Shown: positions 1 to 52,893 of the stretch, one piece after another
Layout: the number at the start of each line of letters is the position of its first letter
Numbering within the stretch: position 1 is the stretch's first letter
Origin: Elusimicrobiota bacterium
GTDB taxonomy: Bacteria; Elusimicrobiota; Elusimicrobia; UBA1565
Reading direction: 5' to 3'
Length of the DNA: 64,000 nucleotides
Assembly (NCBI GenBank): GCA_016212885.1
Contig: JACRDO010000132.1
Location: 28,779 to 92,778 of the forward strand
Position numbers and translations under genes: made by a program
The notes under the pieces: generated by a model
What the model saw: the letters and a program-made list of their open reading frames with translations, nothing else
Database searches by the model: none
Told to the model about the DNA's origin: nothing

Positions 1-1
1 G

Positions 2-6600: not shown

Positions 6601-9600
6601 CGTCGGCCCGGCCCCGCTCGCCCCCAGCCCCGGGACCGTCTCTCTCTGGCGCCTCGACGACACGAGCGGAGCCGTTTGGAAGGACTCCGGCCCCGCGAGC
6701 ATCAGCCTCTCCAGCGTGGGAGTGGTCTCGCGCGGCGCCGGCCGCTTCGGCTCAGGCGTGCTCCTGGCCGGGAGCGGGGATCTGCGCAGCGCCTCGCCTG
6801 CGGGCCTGCCGACAGGCGCCGTGCCCCGCGCCATAGAGGCTTGGATCAACCCGGTTTCGACCCAGGGGACATTGGGCCTCGTGAGCTGGGGCACCTCGGG
6901 CGCCGGCACGCTCATGCGGTTCTCCATGGTCTCCGGGCAGCTGGCCGCGGACATGGGCGGGATCACGGTTTCCGGAGGTCCCGTGCTCAGCACCGGGGTC
7001 TGGCAGCATGCGGCCTTCAGCTACGACGGCAGCGCCGCGCGCCTCTATCTCAACGGCGCGCTCGCAGCCAGCCAGAGCGTCGGCGCCCTGGCGACGGCGC
7101 TGGGGACGCTTTTTATCGGCGCGACCGAGTCCGGGGGGAGGTTCTGGGGCTCGATCGACGAGGTCCGCATCATGAACAGCGCCCTTGCCGATGGGCAGGT
7201 CTATGACGACTGCACCCGCGGCCACCCGTATTTCGTCGCCTTCTCCTCCTCCGCGGGCAGCTCCTGGCAGGTGGTCGTGGCCACGGGCGCAGGCGCGGGG
7301 GCCCGCGTCGGCTTGGACGGCGCCCATGGCTCGACGGGCCCGCAGACCCTCAAAGTCAAGGGGCTGCCCCTGAACGTCTCGACGAGCTCGGCCGCGGGCG
7401 CCCTCGCGACGAACCAGGTCATTTTCTACCAGACCGACAGGGCGGGGAACACGAATATTCTGGGCCCCTACGGCATCCTCGTGGATACGAACCCCCAGGT
7501 CGCTTATTCGACCCCGATCCTGCCCGGCGACGGCATGTATACCGGCGCCCGGCCATGGTTCGAATGGACCGGGCCGAGCACCGCGATCACGGCCGGCATG
7601 GGGGGCGCCAACGGCCTCGGGGGGAGCTTCTACCTGCAGGTCTCCTCGAACGACCCGACCTTCGCGGACCCCAATATCGTGCTCAGCATTTCGACGCCCG
7701 CCATCATGGGCGACAACACCCTGCCGAAGGTCTATGGGGTCTACCTCTCCACCCACTCGCTGGGCGAGGGAGCCACATACTATTGGCGCATACGCTCGAA
7801 GAGCTTCTTGGACGTCCTGGGCCCCTGGGGCCCCTGGAAGAGCTTCGTCGTGGACGCGAGCACGCCCGCCGCGGCCAACTACCGGATGTACAGCGCGACC
7901 GGCGGCGTGGTCCTGGAGGGCCAATACACGGACCTGATGCTGGGCGTGACGGCGCAGACGACGGTCACAGACAACCTGAGCGGCTTCTCAAAGAGCTTCC
8001 GCTTCGACCCTGCCGCCGGCACCGTGGCCCTGTGGCACTTCAGCGAGCGCGACGGCCTCGCGCCGAAGGACGCCAGCGGCAACAACAACACCGCCGCGCT
8101 CCTGGGCATCAGCGGCGGCCCGCCCGGCTACCGGACATCTCCATTCGGCGCAGGCCTTCGCTGCGGCGGATCCCACGTCTTCCGGACGTCGAACGCGCAG
8201 TTCGACTTCCCCGCGAACAGCAACATGACCTTCGAGGCGTGGGTGAACCCGGACGATGTCTCCGGCATCCAGGCCCTGGGCGGAGTGGGCAGCGTCACTT
8301 TCCCCGGGGGCAACTGGCTGCTGCGCATCAGCGACGGGAGGCTCTTCTTCTCGAACAACACCGGATTCATCAACAGTCCGGCCATGATGTCGGCGGGCGT
8401 CTGGCAGCACATCGCGATGACCCTGCGCGGGGCCAGGGTCGCCTTCTACATCAACGGGGTGCAGGTCGCGGCGGGCCTCTCTGGCTCCGGCGGAAACAGC
8501 GGCGGGCCTTCTGTCCAGCCGTTCACCCTGTGCGCCGCGGTCGACAACGACGGGGTCACCTATCAGTCTCCATATTCCGGCATGATCGACGAGGTCCGCG
8601 TCCTGAACTACGCCGCGGATCCGCTGCAGATCGCGGCCGACTACGCCGCGACCCTGTCGGGCATCTACGCCGTCGAGTACTCCACGACAGCTGGCGCGTC
8701 CTGGATCGTCGTGAGCGCCACGGCCCCTGCCTCCGGCTGGGCCCACCTGGAGCTGGGCGGGTCGGAAGGCAGCGTGGGCCCGGAGGCATGGTCCGTGCGC
8801 AACCTGCAGCTGGTGCACTCCACTTCCGCGGCCATCGGCTACCAGGCGACCAACCAGATACGCTTCAGCGTCCCGGACCGCGCGGGGAACACGCGCCTCA
8901 GCGGGCCCTACGCCGCGATCGTCGATACCACGGTCGCGGCCGCGGTCTCGACGCCCTCCTACCCGGCGAACGGCGCCTTCCTCACCCAGCAGCCCAATTT
9001 CCTCTGGAGCGGGCCGAGCACGAAGACAGCTTCCGGAATGGGCTTGGCGGCCTCCTATTTCCTCGAGGCCGCGGCCGATCCCGCCTTCGCCAGCCCGGTC
9101 ATCTCCATCTCCACGCCCGTGATCATTCAGAGCACCTTCGCGGCCGCGACGTTCGGAGCCTATCTCTCGACTTATACGCTGATGGATGCCACGACGTATT
9201 ATTGGCGGGTCCGCTCGCGCGATTTCCTCGGCCTGCTCTCGCCGCCCCTGAGCGTGTCCAGCTTCGTCACGGACCTGGGGGCGCCCGCGGGCTCCGCCTT
9301 CCGCAGCTTCAATTCGACCGGCGGCGCGACGGCGGAGGACCTCGTCAACAACCTGACCTCGAACGTCACGGCTTACGTCACCTTCCAGGACCCCGGCTCC
9401 GGGCTGAAGGTCTCCCCGGCCGCGGGCGCGATGCCCTTCGGCGTCATCTACTCGACGACCGGGGGCGCAGGCAATTCGGCCTGGGTCGATGGGGGCCGGA
9501 CAGCGGAAGGAGGCCTGCCGGAATCCTGGTGGGACCCCACGGTCGCCACGATCACGGCGCTGGCGACGTTCCAGAGCCGGCTCTACGCGGGCGCGGCGGG

Positions 9601-12600
9601 TCCCGGGAGGACGTTCGAATACGACGGGACCCAGTGGTCTCAGTCCGGAACGTTCCCCAGCGACGTCCTGACTCTGAAGGAGTTCCGGGGCAAGCTTTAC
9701 GCCGGGCTGTCCGGGGGCTCGGTCTACTCGTTCGATGGGATAAGCTGGAACTTGGCCGCGTCTCTTCCGGCGGCCCGGGTCAACGCCTTGGCGGAGCATA
9801 ACGGGCGGCTCTACGCCGCGACCGGAGCCGAGGGCCAGATTTTCGCGTTCGACCCGGACGCCGGCGGCTGGTATGAGGTCTTTCGGGCCACTGAGCCGGA
9901 GTTCTTCTCCCTTAAGTCCTACAATGGGCGGCTCTTCGCGGGAGCGGGCCCGGACATCTACTCCTTCGATGGGAGCACCTGGACCGTGACGAACTGGATC
10001 GGAGGGTCGGCCCGCGCCTTCGAGGTCTACCGGGGCCGCCTCTACGCGGGCACGAACATCTCCGGGTATATCTACGCCTATGACGGCAGCGTCTGGACGC
10101 GTCCCTTGGACATCAGCGAGGATTTCAACCGGGCTCTCGGCGTCTTCGGCGGCCGCCTCTACCTCGGCGCCAGCCTGCCGAGCAACGGCCGGATCTACAT
10201 GTACGACGGCAACACCGGCCCCGGCGGGCTGCTCGTCTATACCCTGCCGACCCCGGCCGACTCGATCTACGCCATCGCCAGCTACGGGAACCGGCTCTAC
10301 CTCGGCGGCACGAGCCCCTCCGGCGCGAAGGTCTACGTCTCCACGCCTCTGGCGGTCAGCCTCACGGGCTTAGACGGCGCCAAAACGCCGGAACAACTCA
10401 AGATCACGGGGCTTAATCCGATCCAGTCCGTCAACGCGAACATCTGCAATGGGAACTGGGCCTGCACGGCCACCAACCAGGTCCGCTTCACGGCTGCGGA
10501 CCAAGCGGGCAACATCGGCCAAGCTGGGCCCTTCGCGATCCTGGTCGATCCGTCGCTTTCGCCTCCCACGGCGCTCTATCCGCCTTCCGGCTCATTCGTC
10601 CGCTCCAGCAGCCCCACGTTCGTATGGGCGGAGTCGAGCGCGATGTCGATCCACAACGTGCAGGTCTCCAGCCAGGCGGCTTTCACGAACCTGAGCCTCG
10701 ACAGCATCGCGAACACGCCCGCCTACACTTCTCCGGTTGCGCTTGCGAACGCCACCACCTATTATTGGCAGGTGCGCAGCCGCAGCCCAAGCGGCATCTA
10801 CTCGGCCTTTTCGGCAGTCAACGCCTTCGTCATGGACCTCAGCCGGCCCACGACCTCGGTGTTCCTCCATTTCGGTTCGACCGGAGGCCCTCTCGCAGAG
10901 AGCCAGTTCGGGAATCTGGCCGCAGGGGTGACGGTCGAGATCACTCTCCAGGATATCGTCTCCGGCTTGGACCGCGGGCCGAGGCGCCAGCCGGTGAGCG
11001 GCGCCGCGGCGCTCTATCCCTTCGACGAGGGCTTCGGCATGTACGCCTCGGGTCTCGGCGGGGAATACCGCCTCGCCTTCAGCTCCGGCGCGTCGTGGGC
11101 TCCAGGCCTCATCAGCTCCGCGGTCTTGACCGGCGGAGCGACCTATCTCTACAACGCCTCTCCAAACTACAACCCGGCCTGGCCCGCGGTCGGCCTGCCG
11201 ATCGCGGGCGGGACGAGGACAATCGAGGCCTGGATCTACCCGCTGGACGGGCAAGGAGGCGGCATACTGCATTACAGCGACTTCCGGCTCCACATCAGCG
11301 GCAGCTGCTCCGGCCCCGTTCCCGGCAACAGCTATCTCTGCGTGAATGCAAGCCAGGGGGCCGCGTATACCTTCACCCCCAGCCAATGGCACCACGTCGC
11401 CTACACCTATGCCGGAGGGACGCATACCCTCTACGCCGACGGAATTTTGCTGGGCTCCTTCCAGCAGATGCTCAATACTCCGGGGGCCGGGCCGATCTTC
11501 GTCGGGACAGCGACCGACTGCGGCGCATTCCGCGGCCGCATCGACGAGCTGCGGATTCTCGCCAAGGCGCTCTCGGCCGCGGAGGTGGACTCGGGCTATC
11601 GGCTTTCGGGCGCCTTCCGCGTGTCCTACTCCTCCGACGGGGGCGCCAACTGGACGGTCGTGACCGCCACGGCGCCGGCCTGGGGCCCGCACCTGGTCTT
11701 GAGCGGCCCGCCGGGGAGCACGGCCCCGCAGACCCTGAGGCTCGAGAACTTCTCGCTGGCGCAATCGACGATCCTGGCGACCGGGGCGTACGGCACGAAC
11801 CAGGTGGTCTTCTCGGTCTCGGACCAGGCAGGCAACGAGGCGACGGCAGGCCCCTTCACTGTCCTGGTGCAGACGTCCGTTCCGCAGCCCATATTGACTT
11901 CCCTGACCCCGCGCTCGACGGAGTCCATCTTCGCGACCGCCATCGCGACCGACCCCCTGAGCGGAGTCATGGAATACCGCTTCGAGGCGTCCCCCAACAA
12001 GACCTTCGCCCCGCCGGTCTCCACCTCTCCATGGGTGGCGGTGTCGACCTATCTTCCCACGGCGCTGCTGGGCTGGGCGTCCGCTTCCTCCTACACCTTC
12101 ACCGGGCTCGCCAGCGCGACGACTTATTACGTCCGCGTCACGGTCCACGACAACTTGTCGAACCTCTCGCCTCCCTCGGATGTGGGGAAAGTGGCGGGTT
12201 TCGCGGTGGACGCCGCCACCTCGACCTACGGGAGCGTGTTCTTCTCCACCAAGAGCGTCGCGCCGGCTTCAGCCCTGCAGAATACCGACGTGGCGATGCT
12301 GAAGTTCATGCTCGCCACGCCCCTCGGCTCCAGCTCACAGTTCTACTCGCTGACCGTGCGCAAGACCGGCACGGCTCCGGATGCGGCGATGCAGAAAGCC
12401 CTCATCGCAATAGACAACAACGGCGACGGGATCTACACCAAGGGCGTGGACGCGGTGCTGGCCGAGGCGCCGTTCACGAACTCGGTGGCGACCCTCAGCC
12501 TGGCCGCGGCCGGCAACTCCGAGAATCTGGGGCCGGCCCTGAAGACGTTCTTCATCGCCTACCGGGTGACGACGGACGCCCAGCCCGGCCTCACCGTGGG

Positions 12601-15600
12601 AGTCGACAACATCACGGAGGCGGATTTCGGCCTCCAGTTCCCCTCGCGCGCGGAAGGCCCATTCCCCACCAATGTCCCGCTGATCCCGATCGCCGACGGG
12701 CCCAACGCGCTGACCGTGACGGCCTTCAACCTCGCCCCGGCCGAGGTCCAGCCCAACACCCTGAACGTCGCGCTCCTGCGCCTGAGCGCCGCGACGGACA
12801 CCGGCACGAGCATCATCTCGACCATGACGTGGCGGCTGCAGGCGAGCCAGCCCTTCAACCAGCTCACGGGCCTCACGCTCTGGCGCGACAAGAACGGCAA
12901 CGGGCTCTTCGAGCCGGGCATCGACGAGAGGGTGACCAGCGGCAACGACTCCTTCACGAACGGATACTCGACGATGGCCCTGACCACCCCGGAGATATCT
13001 TCGCGGACGGTGAAGACGTCCGCGGTCAACTACTTCCTGAGCGCGAACGTGAGCGCGAGCGCCCCGCAGGGGACGACCTTCAGGATCGCGCTGTCCACTC
13101 CGCCGGACGTGCGTCTGGAGAACCCGCTCGATACCGTAAGCTTCACGCAGATCCCCATCATCACGAGCAGCTGCACCATCATACAGAACAACATCGTCTG
13201 GATCTCGACCACGGATCTCTCGCCGGGAGCGTACGGCCAGACTTACTTCCAGGGGAACCTCTATTCGGTGCTTCGCGCGACGCTGAGCGTGGACATCGGT
13301 TTCGCGGAGATCAACCAGGTCACGATGGACCGGACCGGCGACGCGCAGCAGGACGACGTCCAGTACGTGGCGGTTTACAGGGACCAGAATCTCGACGGCG
13401 GACCCCTGAACCCGGTGGTGGATGTGTTTCTCGGCTCTGCGATGTTCGATCCTCTTAAGAAGGCCACCATCGATATCACCACGGCGACGGTCGCCGCGGG
13501 CGCGACGACGGTGTTCTTCATCGCCTATCAGATCAACCCCGCAGCCAGCCCCGGCCGCACGCTCGGCGGCTCCATGACGAACTCGAGCTACTTCCATACG
13601 TCCAATCCCGCGAGCGTCGTTTCGTCGGTCACGATGGATGGGAGCTCCCTCTTTGAGATCAAGACGGCCACCGCGCAGATCGAGGCGACGCAGAACCAGA
13701 TGAAGATCCCGCTCGCGCAGTCCGCGGCCCCCGGCGCGATCGACCAGGTGGCCAACGACATCGGGATGCTGCGCGTCGACATGGTTTCCGACCGCAACAA
13801 CTTCAACTGGCTGAGCCTCATCGTGCGGAGCATCGGAACCGCGCTGGATTCCGACGTCCGGAACGTGCGCGTATTCCGGGACGACGGAAACGGCCTCTTC
13901 TCGGCGTCCTCGGACACCGCCATCAGCGACATCTCCCAGACCTTCACCGGGGGCCAGGTCAACATCCCGCTCTCCATCCCGCAGGCCGTCACCGGCTCGA
14001 CGCAGACCTACTTCGTGACGCTCAGCCTCAACCCCTCGGCCGTGCCGGGAAGGACCGTGGGGGTGGTGATCCCCTCGACGGCGAGCTTCAATGTTAGCTC
14101 GCCGAACAAGGTCTCCAGCCAGACCGCGCTCGGGCCGTTCGCGGGCGGCCCGGTGGCGATCAACCAATTCGCGAACACCATCGCGGTCTCTACCCGCGGC
14201 ATCACGCCCCCGCTCGGCGCGGTCCCGGGGGCGAGGAACGTCGGCCTGCTCGATCTGACGCTCAAGACCAATGTCTCGAACGCGGGCTGGGCGGGACTCA
14301 AGATCGACCAGGCCGGGAGCGCGTCGGACTCGGACATCACCGAGGTGAAGGTCTACTACGACCTCAACAACAGCGGCTTCTTCGACCCCGCAAACACCCA
14401 GCAGTATCTCCTGGTCAGCTCCACCGGGCAGCGCTTCGGGCAGGTCCAGGCCGGCAGCGTGGACATCGTCTTCCCGAGCACCCCCTCGCTGGGCCCGGCC
14501 CCGCAGAGGTATTTCGTAGCCGTGGACCTCGCCGACGACGCGACGCCGGGCAAGACGGTGGCCCTGCGCGCCATCAGCAAGGACTACTTCGTTCCGGTGG
14601 CGCCCAACCAATTCGGTCCGGTGAGCTTCAACTCCCAGCCGCCTATGGACCAGGTCGAGATCAAGGCTCCGCCGGCGCTGATGTACGTCCTTGGAACCAG
14701 CTCCGCGCCGGCCGAAGTCGCGCAGGGCACCGCGAACGTCGTGATGGCGGCGCTGAAGGTCTGGATGTCGAGCTACACGGGGCAATGGACCCAGCTCAGC
14801 GTGGACCGCTCCGGCGCGGGCATCGACTCGGACATCAGCGGGGTCAAGCTGTTCTACGACACCAACGGCAACGGCCGGCTCGACGTCATGACGGACGAGC
14901 GGATCAGCACGGCGAGCTTCATCGGGGGCACGGCCGCCCTGATGTTCTCGACCCAGACGATCACGACCAGCTCGAGGACCTACTACCTGACCTACGACCT
15001 CTCCATGACCGCGGTCGGAGACCACGCCGTGGGGGCCGCCATCAACGCCCCCGGCCTGCTGGCCGTGGCCATGCCCAACAGCGTATCGAGCGACAACTTC
15101 CCGTTCGCGTCGGCCGCCTCGAGGGTCGTCACCACACGCGCGGACCTCTTCGTCGTGGGCCAGAACAAGGCGCCGGGCATGCTGATACAGGGCGCCACGA
15201 ACCAGGTGATGCTCAGCCTTCAACTGAGCACGACGGAGCATGCCATCCTCTGGAGCGGGCTCACCGTGCGCTCCTTGGGCACGGCCGCGGACTCGGACAT
15301 CAGCAGCGTGCACATATGGAAGGACGTCAACGCAGACGGCTTCCTGGAGGCGGACATGGACCAGGACATGACCTCCGGGCTCAACGGATTCCTGGGCGGG
15401 TCCGCGGTTGTAAGCCTGATCACCGCGCAGACGATCAGCATGGCTCCCATGCGCTACCTCGTGACGGTGGACGTGGCCAGCTGCGCCTCGCCCTCCGCGA
15501 GCTTCGGGCTTACGCTGGCAGCGACGAACGCCTTCTCCGTGAACGCCCCCAACACGGTCGTGGACTCAGGCTTCCCGATCTCGTCGGTCGTCGTCTCGCT

Positions 15601-17077
15601 CAAGAAGAGGGCGGAGCAGCTTCTCGTTTCGCCCTCGGACCTCGTGCCGGCGACCGGGATCAACCAGGGACTCGAGGCCTCCGTCGCCAAGCTCGCCTTG
15701 AGAGCCTCGCGCAACAAGGTGGGCTGGACCCAGGTGAGGCTCGCCCGGATCGGGACCCTCAGCGATTCGGACATCGAGGAGGTCCGCCTCTATCGCGACG
15801 AGGACGCTTCCGGGGCCCTCAGCCCCGCGGATATCCTCATCGGCGCCGGAACCTACAACTCGGGCTCGGCGTCCATCGTGTTCGCCCCCGCCTTCGTGCA
15901 GACGATCACCCTCTCGACCCAGACCTACCTCGTGTCCTACAAGATCAAGCCCTCGGCGACCGTCAATGCCGTCGTCGGGCTCACCGTGGCAGAGTTCACG
16001 GTCGACAACCCGGACAGCGTCTCGCTGACGGGCCTTCCGTTCTCGACTTCGCTCGCGAAGATCCTCGATTCCCGAACGCCGAGCCGGCCCGTCGTGACGG
16101 TGGCTGACGGCGCGTTCAGCAGCAAGTCCGAATACCTGCAGTTCAACTGGCAGTCGAGCGTAGTGCTCGGGTATCTGGCGGGCGCCTTCTACGCGATCGG
16201 AACCACCACGGGAGGGACCGACTTGACGAATGGCTTCAAGCCGATCCGGGTCTCTGAGCTCTCCGTCCGAGCGACGGGCTTTGTCTTGCAAGACCAAACG
16301 ATGTACTACGTCTCCGTGAAGACCCAGTCGAACGAAGGCTGGTTCAGCCCCGTAGGCACCTCGAACGGGGTCTTCATGGACTTCGTCATCCCGCCGACCC
16401 CCGCGGCCAAGATCCACCCCCCCGGGGAGAGCACGCTTCGGGTCAGCTGGGGCTCGGTGACCGGCGGGCTCTCGGGCATCGCCGGCTACCGCATCGAGTA
16501 CCGCCGGGCGCAGAGCCCCGTGTGGTACAACGCGAAGACCAAGCAGCCGATTTCTGAAACCGGAGTCTCGGCAGCCGGAATGGGCGGGAAGGGGCTGCGC
16601 GCCGCGGCTGTCTCGCCCGATGAGCTCGTCACCGGAGTCTCGTACCAGGCCACCGACATGCCAAGCGGAACATTGTACGTGCGCATGCGCGCGTTTTCAA
16701 CCGCGGGCCTGGCCAGCGCGCCGACCGACCCGGAGAAGGTCCAGATGGGGCCGCCGGGGACGGCGGCCATCAGCCAGATATCCTGCGCTCCCAACCCGTT
16801 CGACTCTCGAACAAAGCATGGGTGCATCGTGTACACCCTCAGCCAGGATGCCGACGTGACCATCAGCATCTTCAATGTCTTCGGCGGCCTAATTAAGACC
16901 ATGTCGTATTCGGCCGGGTCCGCCGGCGGGCAGAAGGGGACCACAGATATCACGGCCTGTCCGGTGTTCTGGGACGGGACCGACGAGTCGGGACAGAAGG
17001 TCTCCAAGGGCATCTATCTGGCGGTCATCCAGTCCGGCGGGGCCAAGGAAATCCTGAAGATCGGCGTCATCCACTAG
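2..17077 (+). CDS. Giant secreted multi-domain surface protein (adhesin-like), 5'-partial, >5686 aa
   Basis: One uninterrupted frame runs from the window edge to TAG at 17075-17077. Codons 2-16 (AAKAA) continue the Kelch repeat pattern seen downstream, so the true start lies upstream of the window. Domain and repeat grammar is coherent along the whole length (see sub-features). Overlapping ORFs in other frames are Arg/Gly/Pro-rich artefacts. Confidence 0.9.
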   Translation, partial: AAKAAMTTARYSLAAAALSGKVYAVGGMGGTQKENEEYDPAANTWASKALMTTARNSLAAAAVGGKVYAVGGTGGTEKENEEYDPNVNTWASKTAMTTARSGLAAAAVGGKIYAVGGSGPSGANEEYDPATNGWTSKTALTIARSGLAAAAVGGKIYAVGGTNGVVLSSAAEYDPGSNTWSARAQMPTARQQLALAATGGKLYALGGIGGANNENKEYDPGFSQKFTGLTPNTLYTFKARGRNASGAETPETPAISTYTLALAPGGLVAASSFTNVASTGVRVNWSSGTPAGYNPIGTLYRLELATAASFTTLAGSSQTYNTYAGLTGLTPSTKPYFARVEAISGAGIPTSWLSLGSLSSGTLQVTISTFAGTAGNSYAIAWGDYDNDGNPDLAVANYGLNILLLRNNGNGTFAQSTILATAGNYTGIAWGDTDNDGLLDLAVAVNVGDEFILHNDGGGAFTPNTLTGSGGNSYAVAWGDYDNDGRLDLAVANDLAQDDYVARNNGNGTFAIVPLTQTLGNSRGIAWGDYNNDGYLDLAIGNTDKDVVIVRNNNGVSFSTFAVTGSGFANGGIAWGDYDKDGYLDLAFALNTGIVVLRNNGGDGTFAKNTISAPGSNAGVAWTDYNGDGRLDLAVSRSGGQAQILLRNDGGVSFTTVTFAGSAGGAVRGFSLGNFDLSGGPDIALANDGGSDELLLHNDDQLAHAAPGAPSAGFSATLQEYSLFSSSGILALSWGNGTDAETSTAALRYLLRIGTTVAGSSTTCKIPAKFGLDAGASGGSFLYSTRISSAAAGLRLILQKETTVYWAVMTQDGEGLRSAESAEQTAFLAAPGLVTDLRVSAIVSTGLGASSMTVTLQWTAPGDNGYSGAITNGAFEIRCSTTEAILSTSAYAAAQVAVSLATSVVPGALQTHSIPYLNAAATHYFALTMKDGFGARSALSNPATAQSYVLRLPASAGNLYGLAWGDYDGDGRPDMALSYYGGSVVLMHNDGSGAFTQTTVPGTSGSNTGVAWGDFNSDGRLDLAVAVDGSDEYVLRNNGDGTFTNVPVTGSGGRSYAVAWGDYDNDGLLDLAVANETAQDDLIARNNGNGTFTLVPLTQTIGNSRGAAWGDFNNDGFLDLAIANTDKDVVLARNLGNGTFSTGTIGGTGVSTAAAWGDYNNDNYLDLAVANSDGVALMRNKGDGTFAKVWIAGTAGNNAGLAWADFNNNGFLDLLVSRPGGSAQLLLRNNGDGTFTQTLLPLPGSNVVNVSWGDFDADGDLDIAAGSRGWIDAFIFRNDAALAHNAPAAPVSGFSATFQEYAAFSSTGVLTLSWGDASDVETPTSALNYLVRAGTVVSGSSATLKIPFNYGLDGAAGGGSFPYGTRVSALQRGLKFAGFSKGATIYWAVAAEDGEALRSGESAEQTANLTPPASVNNLAAAQDAAVETSSVSWVRLTWTVPGENGTSNPLLPGARYDLRWSTVAPVALESDYNRAPNQSLIPADGESPGATHTQLLAVTAGKTYYFAMTTLDSCNSRSGLSNAANIPMTAWLQEVITDAAPPAALQGDTTAFLKLRLWTNLGSLSWTKLRVRKLGTLPDAAVKNVAIYGDANTNGIFDSGDTAALYSGVPAVFASSAVTLAVQTVGQTISNSTRTYFLTLQLEPSYLPQDGSTAALKLDGEAFSVIGGGVLGTDFPGLLLDGIDDRVRASDSAVLDPPNQITLDAWVRTTDPGPNRSIITHSNASGTDGYRLWLNGSTCGAGVPTLFIGPSVLCANRGGSPVSIADDRWHQVSAVYSIAGGLGQLMFIDGEMLSTGPVTGSISDSASELGVGGPNNYAGNYLNGKIDEARISQTARYTSSFIPWRRSDTDYNTVLQYHFDAMDGTGTVVTDAAGQVTGILDGQARGYGRSTATVVVDAQDMMMSSATSLLPDTLYRNAVNVPVLKLQLWASQDNVIINRLSVAQTGTGASAGVANLRLYRDNGDGYFQPTLDQSLTLGQVFSVNKATFDLLGATPPAPQQVWSSTKTYFVVWDVTGGAETGKSLGLAISTDDFVLAGATDAVSTAAFPLRASTVPVVSARVYVTPETPPSAWVNVSSLVFIGDFTLGNVDHFYYLFDQNPGTQINGGGSETLWTIGKATATATADGSSWYFHVRAFDYLGQGGTQTDFGPYFVDRTRPTGASFVHFNSTGGALGQSQVNDLAQPVTAQLSVQDSGAGLNVVGPAPLAPSPGTVSLWRLDDTSGAVWKDSGPASISLSSVGVVSRGAGRFGSGVLLAGSGDLRSASPAGLPTGAVPRAIEAWINPVSTQGTLGLVSWGTSGAGTLMRFSMVSGQLAADMGGITVSGGPVLSTGVWQHAAFSYDGSAARLYLNGALAASQSVGALATALGTLFIGATESGGRFWGSIDEVRIMNSALADGQVYDDCTRGHPYFVAFSSSAGSSWQVVVATGAGAGARVGLDGAHGSTGPQTLKVKGLPLNVSTSSAAGALATNQVIFYQTDRAGNTNILGPYGILVDTNPQVAYSTPILPGDGMYTGARPWFEWTGPSTAITAGMGGANGLGGSFYLQVSSNDPTFADPNIVLSISTPAIMGDNTLPKVYGVYLSTHSLGEGATYYWRIRSKSFLDVLGPWGPWKSFVVDASTPAAANYRMYSATGGVVLEGQYTDLMLGVTAQTTVTDNLSGFSKSFRFDPAAGTVALWHFSERDGLAPKDASGNNNTAALLGISGGPPGYRTSPFGAGLRCGGSHVFRTSNAQFDFPANSNMTFEAWVNPDDVSGIQALGGVGSVTFPGGNWLLRISDGRLFFSNNTGFINSPAMMSAGVWQHIAMTLRGARVAFYINGVQVAAGLSGSGGNSGGPSVQPFTLCAAVDNDGVTYQSPYSGMIDEVRVLNYAADPLQIAADYAATLSGIYAVEYSTTAGASWIVVSATAPASGWAHLELGGSEGSVGPEAWSVRNLQLVHSTSAAIGYQATNQIRFSVPDRAGNTRLSGPYAAIVDTTVAAAVSTPSYPANGAFLTQQPNFLWSGPSTKTASGMGLAASYFLEAAADPAFASPVISISTPVIIQSTFAAATFGAYLSTYTLMDATTYYWRVRSRDFLGLLSPPLSVSSFVTDLGAPAGSAFRSFNSTGGATAEDLVNNLTSNVTAYVTFQDPGSGLKVSPAAGAMPFGVIYSTTGGAGNSAWVDGGRTAEGGLPESWWDPTVATITALATFQSRLYAGAAGPGRTFEYDGTQWSQSGTFPSDVLTLKEFRGKLYAGLSGGSVYSFDGISWNLAASLPAARVNALAEHNGRLYAATGAEGQIFAFDPDAGGWYEVFRATEPEFFSLKSYNGRLFAGAGPDIYSFDGSTWTVTNWIGGSARAFEVYRGRLYAGTNISGYIYAYDGSVWTRPLDISEDFNRALGVFGGRLYLGASLPSNGRIYMYDGNTGPGGLLVYTLPTPADSIYAIASYGNRLYLGGTSPSGAKVYVSTPLAVSLTGLDGAKTPEQLKITGLNPIQSVNANICNGNWACTATNQVRFTAADQAGNIGQAGPFAILVDPSLSPPTALYPPSGSFVRSSSPTFVWAESSAMSIHNVQVSSQAAFTNLSLDSIANTPAYTSPVALANATTYYWQVRSRSPSGIYSAFSAVNAFVMDLSRPTTSVFLHFGSTGGPLAESQFGNLAAGVTVEITLQDIVSGLDRGPRRQPVSGAAALYPFDEGFGMYASGLGGEYRLAFSSGASWAPGLISSAVLTGGATYLYNASPNYNPAWPAVGLPIAGGTRTIEAWIYPLDGQGGGILHYSDFRLHISGSCSGPVPGNSYLCVNASQGAAYTFTPSQWHHVAYTYAGGTHTLYADGILLGSFQQMLNTPGAGPIFVGTATDCGAFRGRIDELRILAKALSAAEVDSGYRLSGAFRVSYSSDGGANWTVVTATAPAWGPHLVLSGPPGSTAPQTLRLENFSLAQSTILATGAYGTNQVVFSVSDQAGNEATAGPFTVLVQTSVPQPILTSLTPRSTESIFATAIATDPLSGVMEYRFEASPNKTFAPPVSTSPWVAVSTYLPTALLGWASASSYTFTGLASATTYYVRVTVHDNLSNLSPPSDVGKVAGFAVDAATSTYGSVFFSTKSVAPASALQNTDVAMLKFMLATPLGSSSQFYSLTVRKTGTAPDAAMQKALIAIDNNGDGIYTKGVDAVLAEAPFTNSVATLSLAAAGNSENLGPALKTFFIAYRVTTDAQPGLTVGVDNITEADFGLQFPSRAEGPFPTNVPLIPIADGPNALTVTAFNLAPAEVQPNTLNVALLRLSAATDTGTSIISTMTWRLQASQPFNQLTGLTLWRDKNGNGLFEPGIDERVTSGNDSFTNGYSTMALTTPEISSRTVKTSAVNYFLSANVSASAPQGTTFRIALSTPPDVRLENPLDTVSFTQIPIITSSCTIIQNNIVWISTTDLSPGAYGQTYFQGNLYSVLRATLSVDIGFAEINQVTMDRTGDAQQDDVQYVAVYRDQNLDGGPLNPVVDVFLGSAMFDPLKKATIDITTATVAAGATTVFFIAYQINPAASPGRTLGGSMTNSSYFHTSNPASVVSSVTMDGSSLFEIKTATAQIEATQNQMKIPLAQSAAPGAIDQVANDIGMLRVDMVSDRNNFNWLSLIVRSIGTALDSDVRNVRVFRDDGNGLFSASSDTAISDISQTFTGGQVNIPLSIPQAVTGSTQTYFVTLSLNPSAVPGRTVGVVIPSTASFNVSSPNKVSSQTALGPFAGGPVAINQFANTIAVSTRGITPPLGAVPGARNVGLLDLTLKTNVSNAGWAGLKIDQAGSASDSDITEVKVYYDLNNSGFFDPANTQQYLLVSSTGQRFGQVQAGSVDIVFPSTPSLGPAPQRYFVAVDLADDATPGKTVALRAISKDYFVPVAPNQFGPVSFNSQPPMDQVEIKAPPALMYVLGTSSAPAEVAQGTANVVMAALKVWMSSYTGQWTQLSVDRSGAGIDSDISGVKLFYDTNGNGRLDVMTDERISTASFIGGTAALMFSTQTITTSSRTYYLTYDLSMTAVGDHAVGAAINAPGLLAVAMPNSVSSDNFPFASAASRVVTTRADLFVVGQNKAPGMLIQGATNQVMLSLQLSTTEHAILWSGLTVRSLGTAADSDISSVHIWKDVNADGFLEADMDQDMTSGLNGFLGGSAVVSLITAQTISMAPMRYLVTVDVASCASPSASFGLTLAATNAFSVNAPNTVVDSGFPISSVVVSLKKRAEQLLVSPSDLVPATGINQGLEASVAKLALRASRNKVGWTQVRLARIGTLSDSDIEEVRLYRDEDASGALSPADILIGAGTYNSGSASIVFAPAFVQTITLSTQTYLVSYKIKPSATVNAVVGLTVAEFTVDNPDSVSLTGLPFSTSLAKILDSRTPSRPVVTVADGAFSSKSEYLQFNWQSSVVLGYLAGAFYAIGTTTGGTDLTNGFKPIRVSELSVRATGFVLQDQTMYYVSVKTQSNEGWFSPVGTSNGVFMDFVIPPTPAAKIHPPGESTLRVSWGSVTGGLSGIAGYRIEYRRAQSPVWYNAKTKQPISETGVSAAGMGGKGLRAAAVSPDELVTGVSYQATDMPSGTLYVRMRAFSTAGLASAPTDPEKVQMGPPGTAAISQISCAPNPFDSRTKHGCIVYTLSQDADVTISIFNVFGGLIKTMSYSAGSAGGQKGTTDITACPVFWDGTDESGQKVSKGIYLAVIQSGGAKEILKIGVIH
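1090..4590 (+). repeat. Internal tandem duplication of a ~580-aa module (FG-GAP/VCBS propeller plus Fn3-like tail) in the giant CDS
   Basis: Copy 1 spans about 1090-2860 and copy 2 about 2870-4590. Each has 8-9 FG-GAP units (AWGDYDNDG.LDLAVAN....L.RNNGNGTF) followed by AH(A/N)AP.AP..GFSAT(L/F)QEY...LSWG...AL.YL.R.GT. Some stretches are nearly identical between copies (LTGSGGNSYAVAWGDYDNDGRLDLAVAN vs VTGSGGRSYAVAWGDYDNDGLLDLAVAN). The period is about 1740 nt. Confidence 0.8.
6465..11880 (+). repeat. Four copies of a ~465-aa super-repeat (Ig-like / LamG / Ig-like / Fn3-like) in the giant CDS
   Basis: Units start near 6465, 7858, 9272 and 10840, each opening with F..(F/Y).STGG........(N/D)L...VTA...(V/F)QD..SGL. 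Next comes a LamG/ConA-like block (..(E/D)AW(I/V)NP....W(Q/H)H.A..Y.G....LY.NG.......(I/G).IDE(V/L)R(I/V)). Then come (Y/F).V.YS...G..W.VV...TNQ(V/I).F...D.AGN....GP....VD and P..G.......P.F.W.GPS....YYW(R/Q)(I/V)RS. In the third unit the LamG block is replaced by a beta-propeller. Confidence 0.7.
9540..10345 (+). other. Second beta-propeller-like region (about 8 blades of ~40 aa) replacing LamG in super-repeat unit 3
   Basis: Recurrent (F/Y).(G/N)(R/K)LY(A/L)G......G.(I/V)Y.(F/Y)DG..W units, e.g. FRGKLYAGLSGGSVYSFDGISW, YRGRLYAGTNISGYIYAYDGSVW and FGGRLYLGASLPSNGRIYMYDG. Confidence 0.6.
12230..16060 (+). repeat. Array of 8 tandem ~160-aa modules, each with an embedded D.N.(D/N)G..D Ca-loop-like motif; family not recognised
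   Basis: Period is 460-500 nt. Each unit has (V/A).(M/L)L(K/R)(F/L).L........W..L.V...GT..D.D(I/V)..V.(L/V)(Y/W).D.N.(D/N)G.(F/L)(D/E)....D......F......(L/V)......(I/V)......TYF(V/L). Loop motifs sit near 12410, 12880, 13375, 13870, 14350, 14850, 15310 and 15790. Two more diverged copies lie near 4660-5000 and 5760-6130. Confidence 0.7.
16780..17074 (+). other. C-terminal FlgD-Ig-like / T9SS-type sorting domain (CTD) of the giant protein
   Basis: The terminal ~95 aa read CAPNPFDSRTKHGCIVYTLSQDADVTISIFNVFGGLIKTM.....WDGTDESGQKVSKGIYLAVIQSGGAKEILKIGVIH. This matches the NPF...(I/V).Y.L.....V...I(F/Y)...G.L(V/I)..L......WDG.D..G..V..G(I/V)Y signature of FlgD_ig / Por secretion tail domains. Confidence 0.7.
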
Positions 17078-17195: not shown

Positions 17196-18773
17196 ATGTT
17201 CGCAAGGTTTATTCCATTGGCGCTTCTGGCTCTGGCGCTGCGGGCCTCGCCCGCGTGGGCCCAGGCGATCGGAGGCCAGCCCGGCGAGATATTCTCCTTC
17301 GGGGCCGGGGCCCGGGCGCTCGCCATGGGCTCGGCCTACACGGCCGTGGTCAACGACGTATCTTCGGTCTACTACAACCCCGCCGGGCTCGGGCTTCTGC
17401 CGGCGCGGGAGATCTCCCTCATGCGGGCGTTCCTCTACGGGGATGCGACCTACGACTACATCGCCTACGCGCAAAACAACCGCAAGAACGCCGGCGGCTG
17501 GGGCGCCGAGTTCATCCAGTTCAAGGTCGGCGGGGCGAGCGGGCGCGACCAGGACAACAACGAGACCGGGCAGTTCGGCTACTCTGAAAGAGCCTTCGGC
17601 CTCGCGGCAGCCTGGCGCGGGCTCCTGCACCCGCGGCTCTCCCTCGGCGCCAAGGTGAAGATGATGCAGCGCGGCTTCAGCGGCGCCGGCAACGCCGCCT
17701 CCGACAGGCTCTTTGGCATCGACTTCGGCGCGCAGATGGGGCCGTGGGTCGGCGAGCGCCTCATGCTCGGACTCATAGTGCAGAATGTGATGGGCTTCAA
17801 GCAGGGCGACACGGAGGATTCCCTCAAGCTGCTGCTGCGCCTCGGCGCGGCCTACAAGGTCATCGGGCCGCTCTCCGTCGCGGCCGATGTCTCCAACAAC
17901 AGGGAGTTCCGCGTGGGGACGGAGTACTCCATCGGGTTCCTGGCTCTCCGGGTCGGCCTCGCCCAGCAGGGCATGACCTTCGGCGGAGGGCTGCTCTTCA
18001 AGAACCGTTATTCCGTGGACCTGGCGATGCTCAACCATCCGACCCTCGGCATGTCGCAGAGGATCTCGCTCGGCTACCGGTTCGCCGGCGCCGCGGGCGC
18101 GGGCGAGAAGTCGAAGAAGATGCGGTTCTACGCCGAGGAGTTCCTCGCCAACGCCCAGGCCGAGCTGAAGAAGAGGAACTACCTCAAAGCCCTCAACGAC
18201 TTCTCCGCCGGCCTCGGCATCGACCCCAAGCGCGGGGCCGAGTGGCGCTCGAAGACCGACCGCCTGCGCCGGCTCCTCAAGCGGATGGGCCTCGAGGCCC
18301 ATCCGGAGGACAGCGCCACGCTCGCAGAGGACTCGCAGCCCGCCGTCGTAGCTTTCGCGGCCATAGAATCCTACATGGGCCGGGAGGAGGAGCGGGCGAT
18401 GACTCTGGCCCACGCGGCGGTCGGCCTGGATACCGCCAAGGGCGCCTTCGGACGGCTGCTCGACTCGCTGGCAGCGCTGACGGGACATGCGATCCAGCGC
18501 GACCAGCTCCTGCCGCCGCTGCGGCTGGCGGAGTTCAAGATGAAGCGGGCCATGGACGCCATCTATGCCCGCAGGTTCGAGGCGGCCGTGACCCTGCTTC
18601 GCGAAGCCCTCTGGCTCGACCCCGGCAACGTCATGGCCTGGACCCGGCTCGGCTCGGCCTTCTTCGCCTCCGGGGACCGCCCGAAGGCCGCGGAGGCGTA
18701 CCGAGAGGCGCTCCGGCTCAACCCGGCCGATGAGAAGCTGAGGCAGTTCGTCAGGTCCCAGGGGTTGGAGTAA
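17196..18773 (+). CDS. Outer-membrane beta-barrel protein, PorV/PorQ (FadL)-like, with C-terminal TPR-like domain
   Basis: Signal peptide MFARFIPLALLALALRASPAWAQ. The N-terminal motif GARALAMGSAYTAVVNDVSSVYYNPAGLG is typical of FadL/PorV/PorQ-type barrels. An amphipathic strand pattern runs to about residue 300 (..QRISLGYRF). A ~220-aa helical TPR-like tail follows (AWTRLGSAFFASGDRPKAAEAYREALRLNPAD). Confidence 0.55.
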   Translation: MFARFIPLALLALALRASPAWAQAIGGQPGEIFSFGAGARALAMGSAYTAVVNDVSSVYYNPAGLGLLPAREISLMRAFLYGDATYDYIAYAQNNRKNAGGWGAEFIQFKVGGASGRDQDNNETGQFGYSERAFGLAAAWRGLLHPRLSLGAKVKMMQRGFSGAGNAASDRLFGIDFGAQMGPWVGERLMLGLIVQNVMGFKQGDTEDSLKLLLRLGAAYKVIGPLSVAADVSNNREFRVGTEYSIGFLALRVGLAQQGMTFGGGLLFKNRYSVDLAMLNHPTLGMSQRISLGYRFAGAAGAGEKSKKMRFYAEEFLANAQAELKKRNYLKALNDFSAGLGIDPKRGAEWRSKTDRLRRLLKRMGLEAHPEDSATLAEDSQPAVVAFAAIESYMGREEERAMTLAHAAVGLDTAKGAFGRLLDSLAALTGHAIQRDQLLPPLRLAEFKMKRAMDAIYARRFEAAVTLLREALWLDPGNVMAWTRLGSAFFASGDRPKAAEAYREALRLNPADEKLRQFVRSQGLE

Positions 18774-18786
18774 CAAAAAGGCAATG

Positions 18787-18802
18787 AAAGCCCCGGCTTT
18801 TT
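18787..18802 (+). terminator. Weak hairpin plus T-tract after the barrel gene (AAAGC-CCCG-GCTTT-TT)
   Basis: 5-bp stem, 4-nt loop and a short T run, 14 nt after the stop codon. It is too weak to assert termination. Confidence 0.2.
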
Positions 18803-18823
18803 CCTGCATACTTGAGCGGTGAC

Positions 18824-21331
18824 ATGGACGCTGTCATCATCGTCCTGATCCCGGTGCTGTTCCTGACGCTGGCGGCCAGCATGCTGGTCGTCAGCCAGGT
18901 TTCCGGCTTCTTCCAGTCCAACAAGTACTCCCGCAAGCGCCAGCAGGACCGCATGGAGATCCAGCGGTTCATGGCCCAACTGGCCGGCGCGCAGAGCCAG
19001 GTCTTTGCGCGCAGCAAGGAGCTCGAGCGGCTCTCGGCGAACCTGCAGCTCAGCAACCAGGAGCTGGCCCGGCTCAACAGCATGAAGACGAAGTTCCTGT
19101 CGATGGTTGTCCACGATATGAGGACCCCGCTTGCCTCCATCAAGGGGTTCGGCGAAATGCTCAGCCGCCAGACGCTCCCGGCGCAGCAGACGAAGTATGT
19201 GAACTATATCGTCAGCGGCACGGACCAGATCAACCAGCTGATGGCCGACCTCACGGACCTCGCGGTCATCGAAGCAGGCAAGCTCAAAATGGAAAAGCAG
19301 CCATTCGCCTTGTCCGACATGGTCAATGACCTCGTGCCCGGGATTGGCCTGCAGGCGCAGAAGAAGGGCGTGATTTTCACGGCGCCGGAGCCGCCGCGGG
19401 GGATCACCGTAATCGGGGACAGCTTCCGTCTGCGCCAAGCGCTCCAGAACTTCCTCACCAACGCGGTCAAATTCACCCCCGCGGGGGGAAAAGTCGAGCT
19501 GAGGGTCAGCGTGGGCCCGCGGGGCGCGCTGTTCCAGGTCAAGGACACGGGCCCGGGCATCCACGCCTCCGAGCGCAAGCGCATCTTCGAGAAGTTTTAC
19601 CAGTCGCAGTTCGGGGACCCGAAGGCGCGCCAGAAGGGCTGGGGGCTCGGCCTCTCGATCGCGCAGGAGATCATCCGCTCGCACCAGGGGGAGATGGGGG
19701 TGGATTCCGCCGGGCTCGGCAAGGGCGCCACCTTCTGGTACCGCATCCCGCTCAAGCCCTCCAGGATGGCGGCCTACGCGCTCGCAAAGACCGCGGCGGC
19801 CGTCCTCCTGCTGGCCCTGCTCCTGCCGGGGGCCCGGGCCCAGCAGACGCTCCCGATCGAGGAGAAGGCGAAGTTCGAGAAATCCCTCGAGGACCGCGCC
19901 AACACGATCCTGCTCCACATCCTGGGGCCCAACCGCGGGCGTGTCGTAGTCGACGCCACGCTCGACTTCACCCGCATCGAGAAGTTCGACGTCAAGAGCG
20001 GAGCCGTATCGCCTGACCGGGAGACCCTCTACCTCTGGGAGAAGGTGGGAGCCCAATCGGGCGGCCAGGACCTGCTCCCGGGCATCCCGCCCCAGGAGCA
20101 GCTGCCGAACGCGAACCTGGCGCGCTCCTACGAGCGGCAAAACTCCTTCCCGACGGCCTTTATCAAGAGACTCAAGGTGACGGTTATCTTGGACGGCGCT
20201 GTCGGCGCCGACCAACGCAAGATCATCACGGATGCCCTGACGGAGGCTCTCGACCTCAAGAAAGATCGGGGAGTGGATGCAAACGGCTTCACGCTCAAAG
20301 ACGAAATGCTGATCGTTCCCGCCACCTTCGCCCCCGCATGGAAGACGGTCTGGTACACCCCGGAATCCGCAAGCCTCCTCTTCAAATACGCGCTCATCAG
20401 CCTGATGACGCTGATCACCCTCATCGTCGTCGCGGCCTGCTTCCTGAAGCTCGCGGAGGCGATGGACTCGATGGCGCAGGCGCAGGCCCATCAGCTCCAG
20501 ATGGACTTCGGCCAGCAGGGCGCCGACCTCGCCGGGAAGGAAGAGGAGGAGAAGAAGAAGAAGGAGGAGGAGGCCAAAGCCGAGAGCGCGGAGGCCGCCT
20601 CCACCAAGATCGTCTTCAACGTCAAGGTGGAGCAGATCGAGACGCTCATCGAGATGGTGCGCAGCCAGGACGCGGAGAACATCTCCCTCATCGCCGCGCA
20701 CCTCCCGCCCGACGTCAAGAAGGCGTTCCTGGCCAAGCTCCCGCCGAGCGTCTACAGCGAGGTGATCTTCTATCTCGGCCGCGTGCGCTTCATCGACCAG
20801 GAGGTTGTCTCCACCGTCAAGGACGAGCTGGAGCGGCGCCTGGAGAGCGCGGTCGGCGGCCGGTCGAACCTCCTCGGCATGATCGAGGCCTCGGACCTCA
20901 AGTCCAAGCGCGAGCTCCTCAAGCTGCTCGAGGAGCGCGACCCCGACCTTGCGCGGCAGCTGCGCGAGCAAATCCTGCTCTTCGAGGACCTCTCGGACCT
21001 CGAGGAGAAGGACTGGTCCTTGGTCTTCTCGGTCGTCACGCTCGAGGAATGGGCCTTCGCGCTCTACGATGCCCCGGAGGATCTGGTCGAGGCGCTCAAG
21101 AGCCAGATGCTTCCGAAGACCTGGGCCATCCTGTCCCAGATGATGCAGGTGGGCCGTCCCTCGGAAAGGGCCATCGAGGAGGCGCACGAGCGCATCGTCA
21201 ACTCGGTCTGGAAGCTGGTTCAGGACGGCCGCATCACCAACCCCATCACCCGCCGCATCGAGCGCATGGCCGCCCGGCCGAAGGAAGAGGGCCCTCCCCC
21301 CTTGGTCGAGGGCGCCGCGGAGCTGGGCTAG
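18824..21331 (+). CDS. Fusion protein: membrane-anchored histidine kinase + FliF RBM3-like periplasmic ring domain + FliG (middle and C-terminal)-like domain
   Basis: The frame is open from TTG 18812 / ATG 18824 to TAG 21329-21331 with no internal stop. N-terminal TM helix (AVIIVLIPVLFLTLAASMLVV), coiled coil, H-box FLSMVVHDMRTPLASI, N-box NAVKFT, G1 DTGPGI, G2 GWGLGLSIA. From M at 19766 there is a TM or signal-like helix. Next comes LEDRANTILLHILGPNRGRVVVDATLDF...IKRLKVTVILDG...TM, colinear with FliF RBM3, beta-collar and TM2. After a Glu/Lys-rich linker, a region aligns end to end with FliG_M and FliG_C (ISLIAAHLPPDVKKAFLAKLPPSVYSEVI...; LLKLLEERDPDLARQLREQILLFEDL...WAFALYDAPEDLVEALKSQM). 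Confidence 0.8.
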   Translation: MDAVIIVLIPVLFLTLAASMLVVSQVSGFFQSNKYSRKRQQDRMEIQRFMAQLAGAQSQVFARSKELERLSANLQLSNQELARLNSMKTKFLSMVVHDMRTPLASIKGFGEMLSRQTLPAQQTKYVNYIVSGTDQINQLMADLTDLAVIEAGKLKMEKQPFALSDMVNDLVPGIGLQAQKKGVIFTAPEPPRGITVIGDSFRLRQALQNFLTNAVKFTPAGGKVELRVSVGPRGALFQVKDTGPGIHASERKRIFEKFYQSQFGDPKARQKGWGLGLSIAQEIIRSHQGEMGVDSAGLGKGATFWYRIPLKPSRMAAYALAKTAAAVLLLALLLPGARAQQTLPIEEKAKFEKSLEDRANTILLHILGPNRGRVVVDATLDFTRIEKFDVKSGAVSPDRETLYLWEKVGAQSGGQDLLPGIPPQEQLPNANLARSYERQNSFPTAFIKRLKVTVILDGAVGADQRKIITDALTEALDLKKDRGVDANGFTLKDEMLIVPATFAPAWKTVWYTPESASLLFKYALISLMTLITLIVVAACFLKLAEAMDSMAQAQAHQLQMDFGQQGADLAGKEEEEKKKKEEEAKAESAEAASTKIVFNVKVEQIETLIEMVRSQDAENISLIAAHLPPDVKKAFLAKLPPSVYSEVIFYLGRVRFIDQEVVSTVKDELERRLESAVGGRSNLLGMIEASDLKSKRELLKLLEERDPDLARQLREQILLFEDLSDLEEKDWSLVFSVVTLEEWAFALYDAPEDLVEALKSQMLPKTWAILSQMMQVGRPSERAIEEAHERIVNSVWKLVQDGRITNPITRRIERMAARPKEEGPPPLVEGAAELG

Positions 21332-21334
21332 GCT

Positions 21335-22459: not shown

Positions 22460-23197
22460 ATGGACATTACGACACTCTCCGGCATCGTCGGCGTCTTAGC
22501 CATGGTGCTCATCGGGGGCTTCACCGGCGAGCTCTCCGCGGTCTTCCTGAACGCGCACGGCATCGTGATCGTCTTCGGCGGGACCGCCGTCGCCATGCTC
22601 ATCAATACGCCGCTGCGCTATGTTCGGGAGACGCTCCTGGCGTTGGCGGAGCTCTTTCGGGGAGACCGCTTCAGCGACCCGGGCGAGCTGATCCCGGTGC
22701 TGGTGCGCCTTTCCGAGCAGGTCCAGGCGCACGGACTCGGGGCCCTGCGGGGCATCGACGAAAGGGCCGCGGGCGGCTTCCTCGGCCAGGCCGCCACCAC
22801 TGCGATGGAGTACAACAACCCCGACTTCGTCCGGCGCGTGCTGGAGACCGAGGTCAACAACAGGGTGGACCGGGCCAACGAGGTCATCAACGTGGTCCGC
22901 ACCATGGGCGTTGTCGCACCGATGTTCGGCCTGCTCGGCACCCTCATCGGCATCGTGCGGGTCATGGCCGTGCTCACCGACCCGGTGAAGGTCGCCCCGG
23001 CCATGGCTGTCGCCATCACCACGGCCTTCTACGGCATCGCCTTGGCCAACCTGGTGGCGGTCCCCATGGCCGGCAAGATGCGCTTCAGGCTGTGGGAGGA
23101 GATCAAGGTCCGGGCGATGGTCATTGAGGGCGTCATCGGCATGATGCAGGGCACGGTCCCCCTGGTGCTCGAGCGCCGCCTGCAGGCTTTCAAATAG
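22460..23197 (+). CDS. motA: MotA/PomA-family stator channel protein (4 TM)
   Basis: 245 aa. It has TM1-TM2, a ~100-aa cytoplasmic loop, then TM3-TM4 with MGVVAPMFGLLGTLIGIV and APAMAVAITTAFYGIALANLVAVPMAGKM, the MotA-type signature. The start abuts the previous stop (0-nt gap). Confidence 0.85.
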   Translation: MDITTLSGIVGVLAMVLIGGFTGELSAVFLNAHGIVIVFGGTAVAMLINTPLRYVRETLLALAELFRGDRFSDPGELIPVLVRLSEQVQAHGLGALRGIDERAAGGFLGQAATTAMEYNNPDFVRRVLETEVNNRVDRANEVINVVRTMGVVAPMFGLLGTLIGIVRVMAVLTDPVKVAPAMAVAITTAFYGIALANLVAVPMAGKMRFRLWEEIKVRAMVIEGVIGMMQGTVPLVLERRLQAFK

Positions 23198-23200
23198 ATC

Positions 23201-23881: not shown

Positions 23882-23897
23882 TATAATCTGCCGGCCC

Positions 23898-52882: not shown

Positions 52883-52893
52883 GCCCCCGGCTG

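Follow-up and report, generated by a model that had tools for sequence, protein, structure and literature searches.

What are the modules that recur along the giant surface-protein gene of this Elusimicrobiota bacterium, and what might they do there? The window (the whole stretch of DNA analyzed, 64,000 nt of contig JACRDO010000132.1, assembly GCA_016212885.1) opens inside this gene. The original prediction, made from the letters alone, had placed eight tandem modules of ~160 aa at nt 12230–16060 and left them without a known domain family. We found that the modules are copies of a widespread, uncurated beta-sandwich domain family of ~155 residues, which by sequence lies outside any curated family. 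Taken as a whole, the explanation towards which we lean slightly is that the domains of this family carry a calcium loop and form here the stalk array of a surface protein.

Module borders, set by eye and with MAFFT, gave eight head-to-tail modules (M1–M8) at nt 12236–16081 (aa 4074–5355), each 154–169 aa long with a period of 462–507 nt, and two further copies (U1 and U2) upstream, on either side of a LamG domain. As an independent test, a profile built from 440 domains of other (foreign) proteins only was run on the giant protein. It returned precisely ten copies, with E-values from 1.3e-31 to 2.6e-49, and the rest of the protein did not rise above noise. All ten lie on the forward strand: U1 at nt 4601–5080 (aa 1529–1688; profile match nt 4610–5002, E 1.3e-31), U2 at 5702–6181 (aa 1896–2055; E 3.3e-42), M1 at 12236–12706 (aa 4074–4230; E 2.3e-34), M2 at 12707–13192 (aa 4231–4392; E 2.7e-40), M3 at 13193–13699 (aa 4393–4561; E 2.8e-32), M4 at 13700–14176 (aa 4562–4720; E 7.2e-46), M5 at 14177–14677 (aa 4721–4887; E 3.1e-36), M6, the copy that was modelled, at 14678–15145 (aa 4888–5043), M7 at 15146–15619 (aa 5044–5201; E 1.7e-48), and M8 at 15620–16081 (aa 5202–5355; E 1.1e-43). 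The foreign-only profile thus confirms the eight predicted modules, whose borders had been right to within a few codons. It also bears out two diverged upstream copies, predicted at about nt 4660–5000 and 5760–6130 and each beside a LamG region: U1 and U2 flank a Laminin_G_3 (concanavalin-like) domain (PF13385) at nt 5090–5509 (+; aa about 1692–1831; E 3.1e-15, 57.1 bits, over the cutoff). Pairwise identity within the ten modules is 17–30%, and a phmmer search with M6 found the other nine copies at E 1.8e-21 to 1.8e-6. The modules are acidic (pI 4.2–5.1) and almost without cysteine.

The ten-module profile was run exhaustively with HMMER against 1.84 billion representative proteins, a step that the original prediction had proposed, and matched 3,110 proteins at E ≤ 1e-3, 1,394 at E ≤ 1e-10, and 411 at E ≤ 1e-30; single proteins contain as many as 27 matched stretches. 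The named members come from Elusimicrobiota, Planctomycetota, and Candidatus Wallbacteria and include one MYXO-CTERM protein; those from Elusimicrobiota are annotated as "FG-GAP-like repeat-containing", "VCBS repeat-containing", "T9SS type A sorting domain-containing" (T9SS, type IX secretion system) or hypothetical. Copy number differs widely among family proteins. In the 151 best, over which the array layout was summarized, the median is eight copies and 61% of the inter-module gaps are no longer than five residues.

Curated models leave the family almost untouched. When Pfam-A matches of the ten window modules were listed to E ≤ 10, none was above threshold and only GEVED (M2, E 0.02; M5, E 0.014) and FG-GAP_3 (M6, E 0.1) appeared. 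None of 61 diverse family members reached a Pfam gathering score (GEVED was weakly present in seven and BNR_assoc_N in one), and the NCBIfam scan of the modules gave nothing; as far as sequence goes, the modules are indeed unassignable. Nor was there any significant PDB sequence match to the modules, or any match to the PDB in a phmmer search with protein P0137, and profile searches of the PDB with two module alignments (A1 and A2) matched FrpC calcium-loop peptides alone (E 0.016–0.06). A word-indexed homologue search with the same alignments gave one fragment only, and a scan of genome contigs with the whole M1–M8 region gave zero relatives. Cadherin-like, BIg, Calx-beta, and CARDB domains were ruled out, as no module matched them at E ≤ 10 and the 61 members gave chance-level single matches at E ≤ 1. 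What a family model for the module would add is illustrated by a 4,318-aa protein from Wallbacteria: 22 of its stretches match the profile, yet Pfam covers just the C-terminal 100 residues. Such a model would annotate long blank stretches in giant surface proteins of uncultured phyla.

The fold of the modelled M6 is closest to the CBM93/BNR_assoc_N modules of Bacteroidota sialidases, and it shares the three-dimensional fold of the solved members. A confident profile or structure match to a described family had been named as the result that would overturn the original assignment to no family; the sequence searches gave no significant match, and the modelled fold is closest to that of a described family. 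Judged from this model, the module shares the CBM93-like fold, and a remote homology to CBM93 is possible. Its sequence does not place it in the curated BNR_assoc_N family (PF14873, gathering score 25 bits): none of the ten window modules matched at E ≤ 10, one of the 61 family members did so with an E-value of 3.3e-4, and the best protein-level match scored 22.9 bits against the cutoff of 25 (E 7.5e-5). No BNR or sialidase domain was found in the giant protein or in the scanned family proteins.

With CBM93 as the best structural match, the modules could be functional carbohydrate-binding modules (CBMs), distant relatives of CBM93, and the array a multivalent lectin for polysaccharide or glycoconjugate surfaces, in which the calcium loop possibly takes part in sugar binding. 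We regard this as unlikely, yet as an alternative that deserves weighing. T. forsythia NanH has a sialoglycan-binding CBM93 (PMC9472817), the giant protein also has LamG lectin-like domains, and sub-threshold BNR_assoc_N matches occur in one family member and one family protein; against this, no Pfam match reaches the gathering threshold, and the giant protein has no GH33 or other catalytic domain. The Arg-rich cleft of CBM93 (PMC9472817) has no counterpart in the family-wide conserved columns, which comprise Gly, Pro, Ala, hydrophobic residues, and an acidic loop and hold neither a conserved Arg nor an aromatic cluster. Calcium is mentioned in neither CBM93 structure paper, and 8–27 linker-less copies beside a cell anchor are the usual layout of a stalk, not of CBMs.

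The acidic loop was found in all ten window modules, and in eight of them it follows D-x-[DN]-x-[DNS]-G. It reads DANTNGIFDSGDT in U1 (nt 4769–4807), DNNGDGIYTKGVD in M1 (nt 12413–12451), DKNGNGLFEPGID in M2 (nt 12887–12925), DLNNSGFFDPANT in M5 (nt 14360–14398), DTNGNGRLDVMTD in M6 (nt 14858–14896), DVNADGFLEADMD in M7 (nt 15323–15361), and DEDASGALSPAD in M8 (nt 15797–15832). M3 has an insertion (DQNLDGGPLNPVVD, nt 13382–13423), and the loop is shortened in U2 (DNGDGYFQPTLD, nt 5882–5917) and M4 (DDGNGLFSASSD, nt 13880–13915). Counted over the 440 foreign domains, position 1 is D in 94%, position 3 N or D in 80%, position 5 N or D in 80%, position 6 G in 78%, position 9 D, N or E in 72%, and position 12/13 D in 82%, with hydrophobic F, L or Y in the majority at position 8. 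The consensus is D-x-[ND]-x-[ND]-G-x-Φ-[DNE]-x-x-(x)-D, and in 24% of these domains the loop is one residue shorter through a deletion at position 2. The M6 model places the loop precisely in the strand-free segment 61–73, with strands 53–60 and 74–79 on either side. A second conserved acidic turn, G46 (97%)-T-x-x-D50-S-D52, lies directly ahead of strand 5 and therefore at the end of that strand opposite to the acidic loop.

The loop had originally been likened to EF-hand or thrombospondin-type calcium sites set within a beta-sandwich. An EF-hand-like pattern inside a beta-sandwich is supported: the loop pattern of an EF-hand or dockerin (a 12-residue loop with ligands at 1, 3, 5, 7, 9, and 12) is present in eight of the ten copies. 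Because the loop is flanked by strands and not by helices, the modules are not an EF-hand or dockerin domain but carry a DxDxDG loop in a beta-hairpin, and dockerin, the EF-hand domain, and the thrombospondin repeat were all ruled out on the same ground. Judged by its residues, the loop most likely fits an EF-hand/integrin-type site that would bind one calcium ion.

This loop also lies at the center of a further alternative, that the modules are very divergent GEVED (PF20009) stalk domains of fibrillar adhesins and thus already known. GEVED was the commonest weak Pfam match (seven of the 61 members, best E 0.0036), with scores of 16.1–16.6 bits in window modules and 23.3 bits in a relative against a cutoff of 24.4, and it is described as a stalk domain of CshA-type fibrillar adhesins (PMC10952558). 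GEVED and the module are alike in occurring in adhesin-like surface proteins. The weak, recurring similarity covers the second half of the module (residues ~57–139), including the D-x-N-x-D-G loop. It is centered on that calcium loop, which recurs in unrelated folds; the GEVED model, at 78 residues, spans half of a module, no match reached the threshold, and the motif G[ED][VIT]ED was missing from all 450 domains checked (0 of the 440 foreign family domains and 0 of the ten window modules). We therefore consider a GEVED identity very improbable. Hardly probable at all is that the modules are cohesin-like protein–protein interaction domains, the array being a scaffold that recruits partner proteins. 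The modules gave no HMM match to Cohesin (PF00963), the type I/II cohesins of cellulosomes are without sequence relationship to them, and no dockerin partners were seen; cohesins moreover lack a calcium loop (the loop belongs to the dockerin), unlike the module.

How old is the array? It had been proposed to be an old, maintained array and not a recent expansion, and both the DNA and the relatives agree with this. No DNA-level tandem-repeat signal was seen across the module array. Recent tandem expansion at the DNA level was ruled out, as just remnants of 60 nt are left over the loop region, with 63–75% identity and 498 and 465 nt apart. We compared ten related giant proteins of 4,387–7,176 aa, each from a separate 50%-identity cluster. 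In seven of them, each module (U1, U2, and M1–M8 where present) best matches the window module of the same position, with identities of 34–64% at the same position and 23–40% at other positions. The few exceptions fall in the three most divergent giant proteins, P0019, P0020, and P0027: in P0019 and P0020 the module at the M4 position scores slightly higher against M7. The upstream copies have no clear U1/U2 counterparts in P0010, P0016, P0020, and P0027. The same-position best matches imply that the eight-module order predates the divergence of these lineages, and on these comparisons the module array is old. According to Wright et al. in 2005, adjacent domains in tandem arrays reportedly stay below about 40% identity, avoiding inter-domain misfolding. 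The 17–30% identity between neighbouring modules agrees with such dissimilarity of adjacent domains, which limits misfolding.

If the modules are the calcium-binding beta-sandwiches that they appear to be, the eight linker-less copies M1–M8 would form a long calcium-stiffened stalk of roughly 35–40 nm, as estimated from typical beta-sandwich dimensions. This stalk would be placed just before an fn3-like region and a T9SS-like C-terminal sorting domain and would hold the plausible binding heads of the distal part (Kelch and FG-GAP propellers and the LamG domains) off the cell surface; U1 and U2 may act as pedestals around one LamG domain. Stalk repeats of fibrillar adhesins usually sit just inside the anchor region. 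We favor a stalk because conservation falls on structural residues and the acidic loop, because copy number varies, and because the array adjoins the anchor: the distance from the array end to the C-terminus has a median of 319 aa in the 151 best family proteins and is 331 aa in the window protein. These 331 aa (nt 16082–17077, +) comprise the fn3-like stretch (within aa 5356–5601) and a FlgD_ig/T9SS-type domain (aa 5602–5672, nt 16820–17032, +; Pfam 29.8–30.5 bits against a cutoff of 27). The C-terminal domain also resembles the PorU C-terminus locally (E 1.4e-8), and relatives carry Por_Secre_tail (with the NCBI name "T9SS type A sorting domain") or CHU_C. Directly downstream, at nt 17196–18773 (+), is a gene for a PorV/PorQ-like outer-membrane barrel with TPR (NCBIfam PorV_fam, E 1.3e-22, 80.8 bits, cutoff 90; Pfam UPF0164 and TPR), a probable partner of the sorting domain, whose gene position is kept in four loci. 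A surface anchor is proposed because of this FlgD_ig/T9SS-like domain together with the adjacent PorV/PorQ-like gene.

Several points weigh against the stalk explanation. The loops of M4 and U2 are one residue short, and position 5 is Ser in M5 and M8. An AlphaFold model of the tandem M6–M7, from a three-sequence alignment, was poor (pLDDT 63, pTM 0.50) and is uninformative on rigidity. The closest solved fold is carbohydrate-binding, which makes a ligand role a real alternative, and strict positional orthology gives each position its own identity, beyond the need of an interchangeable spacer; the same orthology suggests a specialised role per position and in this respect favors a multivalent lectin. 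As to export, no T9SS core genes were seen in the 64-kb window, and to our knowledge T9SS is not established in Elusimicrobia.

The gene of the giant protein (nt 1–17077, +), taken from the open reading frame (ORF) and its translation, has 5,686 aa visible, and the coding frame is unbroken from the first base of the window to the stop at nt 17077, with a G+C content at third codon positions (GC3) of 0.89. No stop codon precedes the first ATG (nt 17), which means that the window edge truncates the gene at its 5′ end. The gene call for the giant protein is 7,028 aa long on Logan contig SRR12113407_15668, so that ~1,340 N-terminal residues fall beyond the window; to judge from orthologues of 6,600–7,200 aa, which carry ten copies as well, the missing part is probably without further modules. 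Pfam domains found in the protein are Kelch repeats (aa 1–210), fn3 (aa 267–343), two FG-GAP blocks (aa about 379–700 and 961–1300; ~13 repeats bearing the same DxDxDG-type motif as the modules), four Laminin_G_3 (the one between U1 and U2 and three at aa about 2272–2395, 2722–2873, and 3730–3857), and FlgD_ig. From nt ~6180 to 12235, higher-order repeats form three or four large blocks, each with a Laminin_G_3 and recurring flanks (such as "F-N-S-T-G-G ... V-Q-D-x-G-S/A-G-L" and "P-x-F-x-W-x-G-P-S-T"), with leftover DNA similarity 1431–2811 nt apart (families D4, D6, and D8). A propeller-like stretch at aa about 3190–3480 (nt ~9600–10450) contains about eight repeats of ~40 residues with the pattern G-R-L-Y-A/L-G ... 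Y-x-Y/F-D-G-x-x-W and DNA remnants 117–138 nt apart (family D5). It is probably a beta-propeller and, with zero Pfam or NCBIfam matches at E ≤ 1e-3, is the second repeat in the giant protein without a family assignment.

The G+C content of the window is 63–70%, and it also encodes an F-type ATP synthase, recG, relA/spoT, and lpxB, which indicates chromosomal DNA of a diderm bacterium. The AtpD encoded in the window shares 81% identity with that of an uncultured Elusimicrobia MAG and 74% with that of an Elusimicrobiaceae MAG, and the neighbouring gene matches HY922_12930 of an Elusimicrobia MAG at 100% identity. Within the F1 ATP synthase operon, between atpA (38642–40156) and atpG (41507–42487), is an ORF for an NAD-dependent epimerase/dehydratase (40389–41519, +); if this ORF is genuine, the insertion is unusual. 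Four further ORFs with coding-like GC3 are without Pfam or NCBIfam match: 30527–33283 (−, 918 aa), 48226–49518 (−, 430 aa), 52807–54567 (+, 586 aa), and 54564–56192 (+, 542 aa).

The giant gene is followed on the same strand by a cluster at nt 17196–24593 (+), in the order PorV/PorQ-like with TPR, histidine kinase fused to FliG_M/FliG_C, a 374-aa protein without Pfam match and with a sub-threshold NCBIfam match only, MotA, MotB, and an OmpR-type winged-helix protein. The order giant protein, PorV/PorQ-like, histidine kinase–FliG, unmatched protein, MotA, and MotB also occurs in three further Elusimicrobia loci, whose FliG proteins are 45–57% identical to that of the window. Across the loci the histidine kinase is fused to or beside FliF_C/FliG_M/FliG_C, and the unmatched protein is 260–407 aa long. 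A winged-helix gene is present in the window and in two of the three further loci, with no receiver domain detected; locus L084 is without it and has an opposite-strand hydrolase gene after MotB. In total, the cluster, seen in the window and also in L081, L082, L083, and L084, is found in at least four diverged Elusimicrobia loci, and its neighbour is always a protein that bears the modules and has a T9SS-like domain at the C-terminus. In the literature on Elusimicrobia with T9SS or FliG/MotA, we found no description of the giant protein or the cluster. An improbable extension of the stalk explanation couples the array to a motor: it would be the stalk of a surface adhesin that corresponds, in Elusimicrobia, to SprB, the gliding adhesin of Flavobacterium. 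A non-flagellar FliG–MotAB motor might then move or tension the adhesin, with the calcium-stiffened array transmitting the force, and the D-S-D turn and the calcium loop, at opposite ends of strand 5, could form cadherin-like inter-domain calcium sites. The FliG/MotAB cluster is potentially a more interesting lead than the modules themselves.

How, then, does the module compare with known systems? CBM93/PF14873 stands at the N-terminus of GH33 sialidases from Bacteroidota (T. forsythia NanH, P. gingivalis PG0352, BTSA, and Sialidase26), present as a single copy fused to the GH33 propeller, whereas the module occurs in 2–27 tandem copies in giant, non-enzymatic proteins of Elusimicrobiota, Planctomycetota, Wallbacteria, and others. 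Sequence identity between the two is 10–17%, the Pfam threshold is never passed, and the conserved acidic loop is no described feature of CBM93. The module would extend the CBM93-like fold beyond Bacteroidota sialidases. Rigden and Galperin are said to have described, in 2004, calcium-binding DxDxDG loops in EF-hands, dockerins, and the beta-hairpins of integrin/FG-GAP repeats. The module loop resembles these in its residues, which are acidic or amide at positions 1, 3, and 5, Gly at 6, hydrophobic at 8, acidic at 9, and Asp at 12/13. EF-hands and dockerins are helix–loop–helix structures, an arrangement that the module lacks; its loop connects two strands, as that of integrin FG-GAP repeats does. 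The module would be another instance of a DxDxDG calcium loop grafted onto a beta-sandwich. The stalk repeats of giant adhesins are about 90–110 aa long, the module being larger at 155 aa, and the cadherin-like domains, the BIg domains of LapA and MpIBP, SdrD B, and Calx-beta show no sequence match to it. Calcium-dependent beta-sandwich stalks of giant adhesins are well known, and the module changes no concept.

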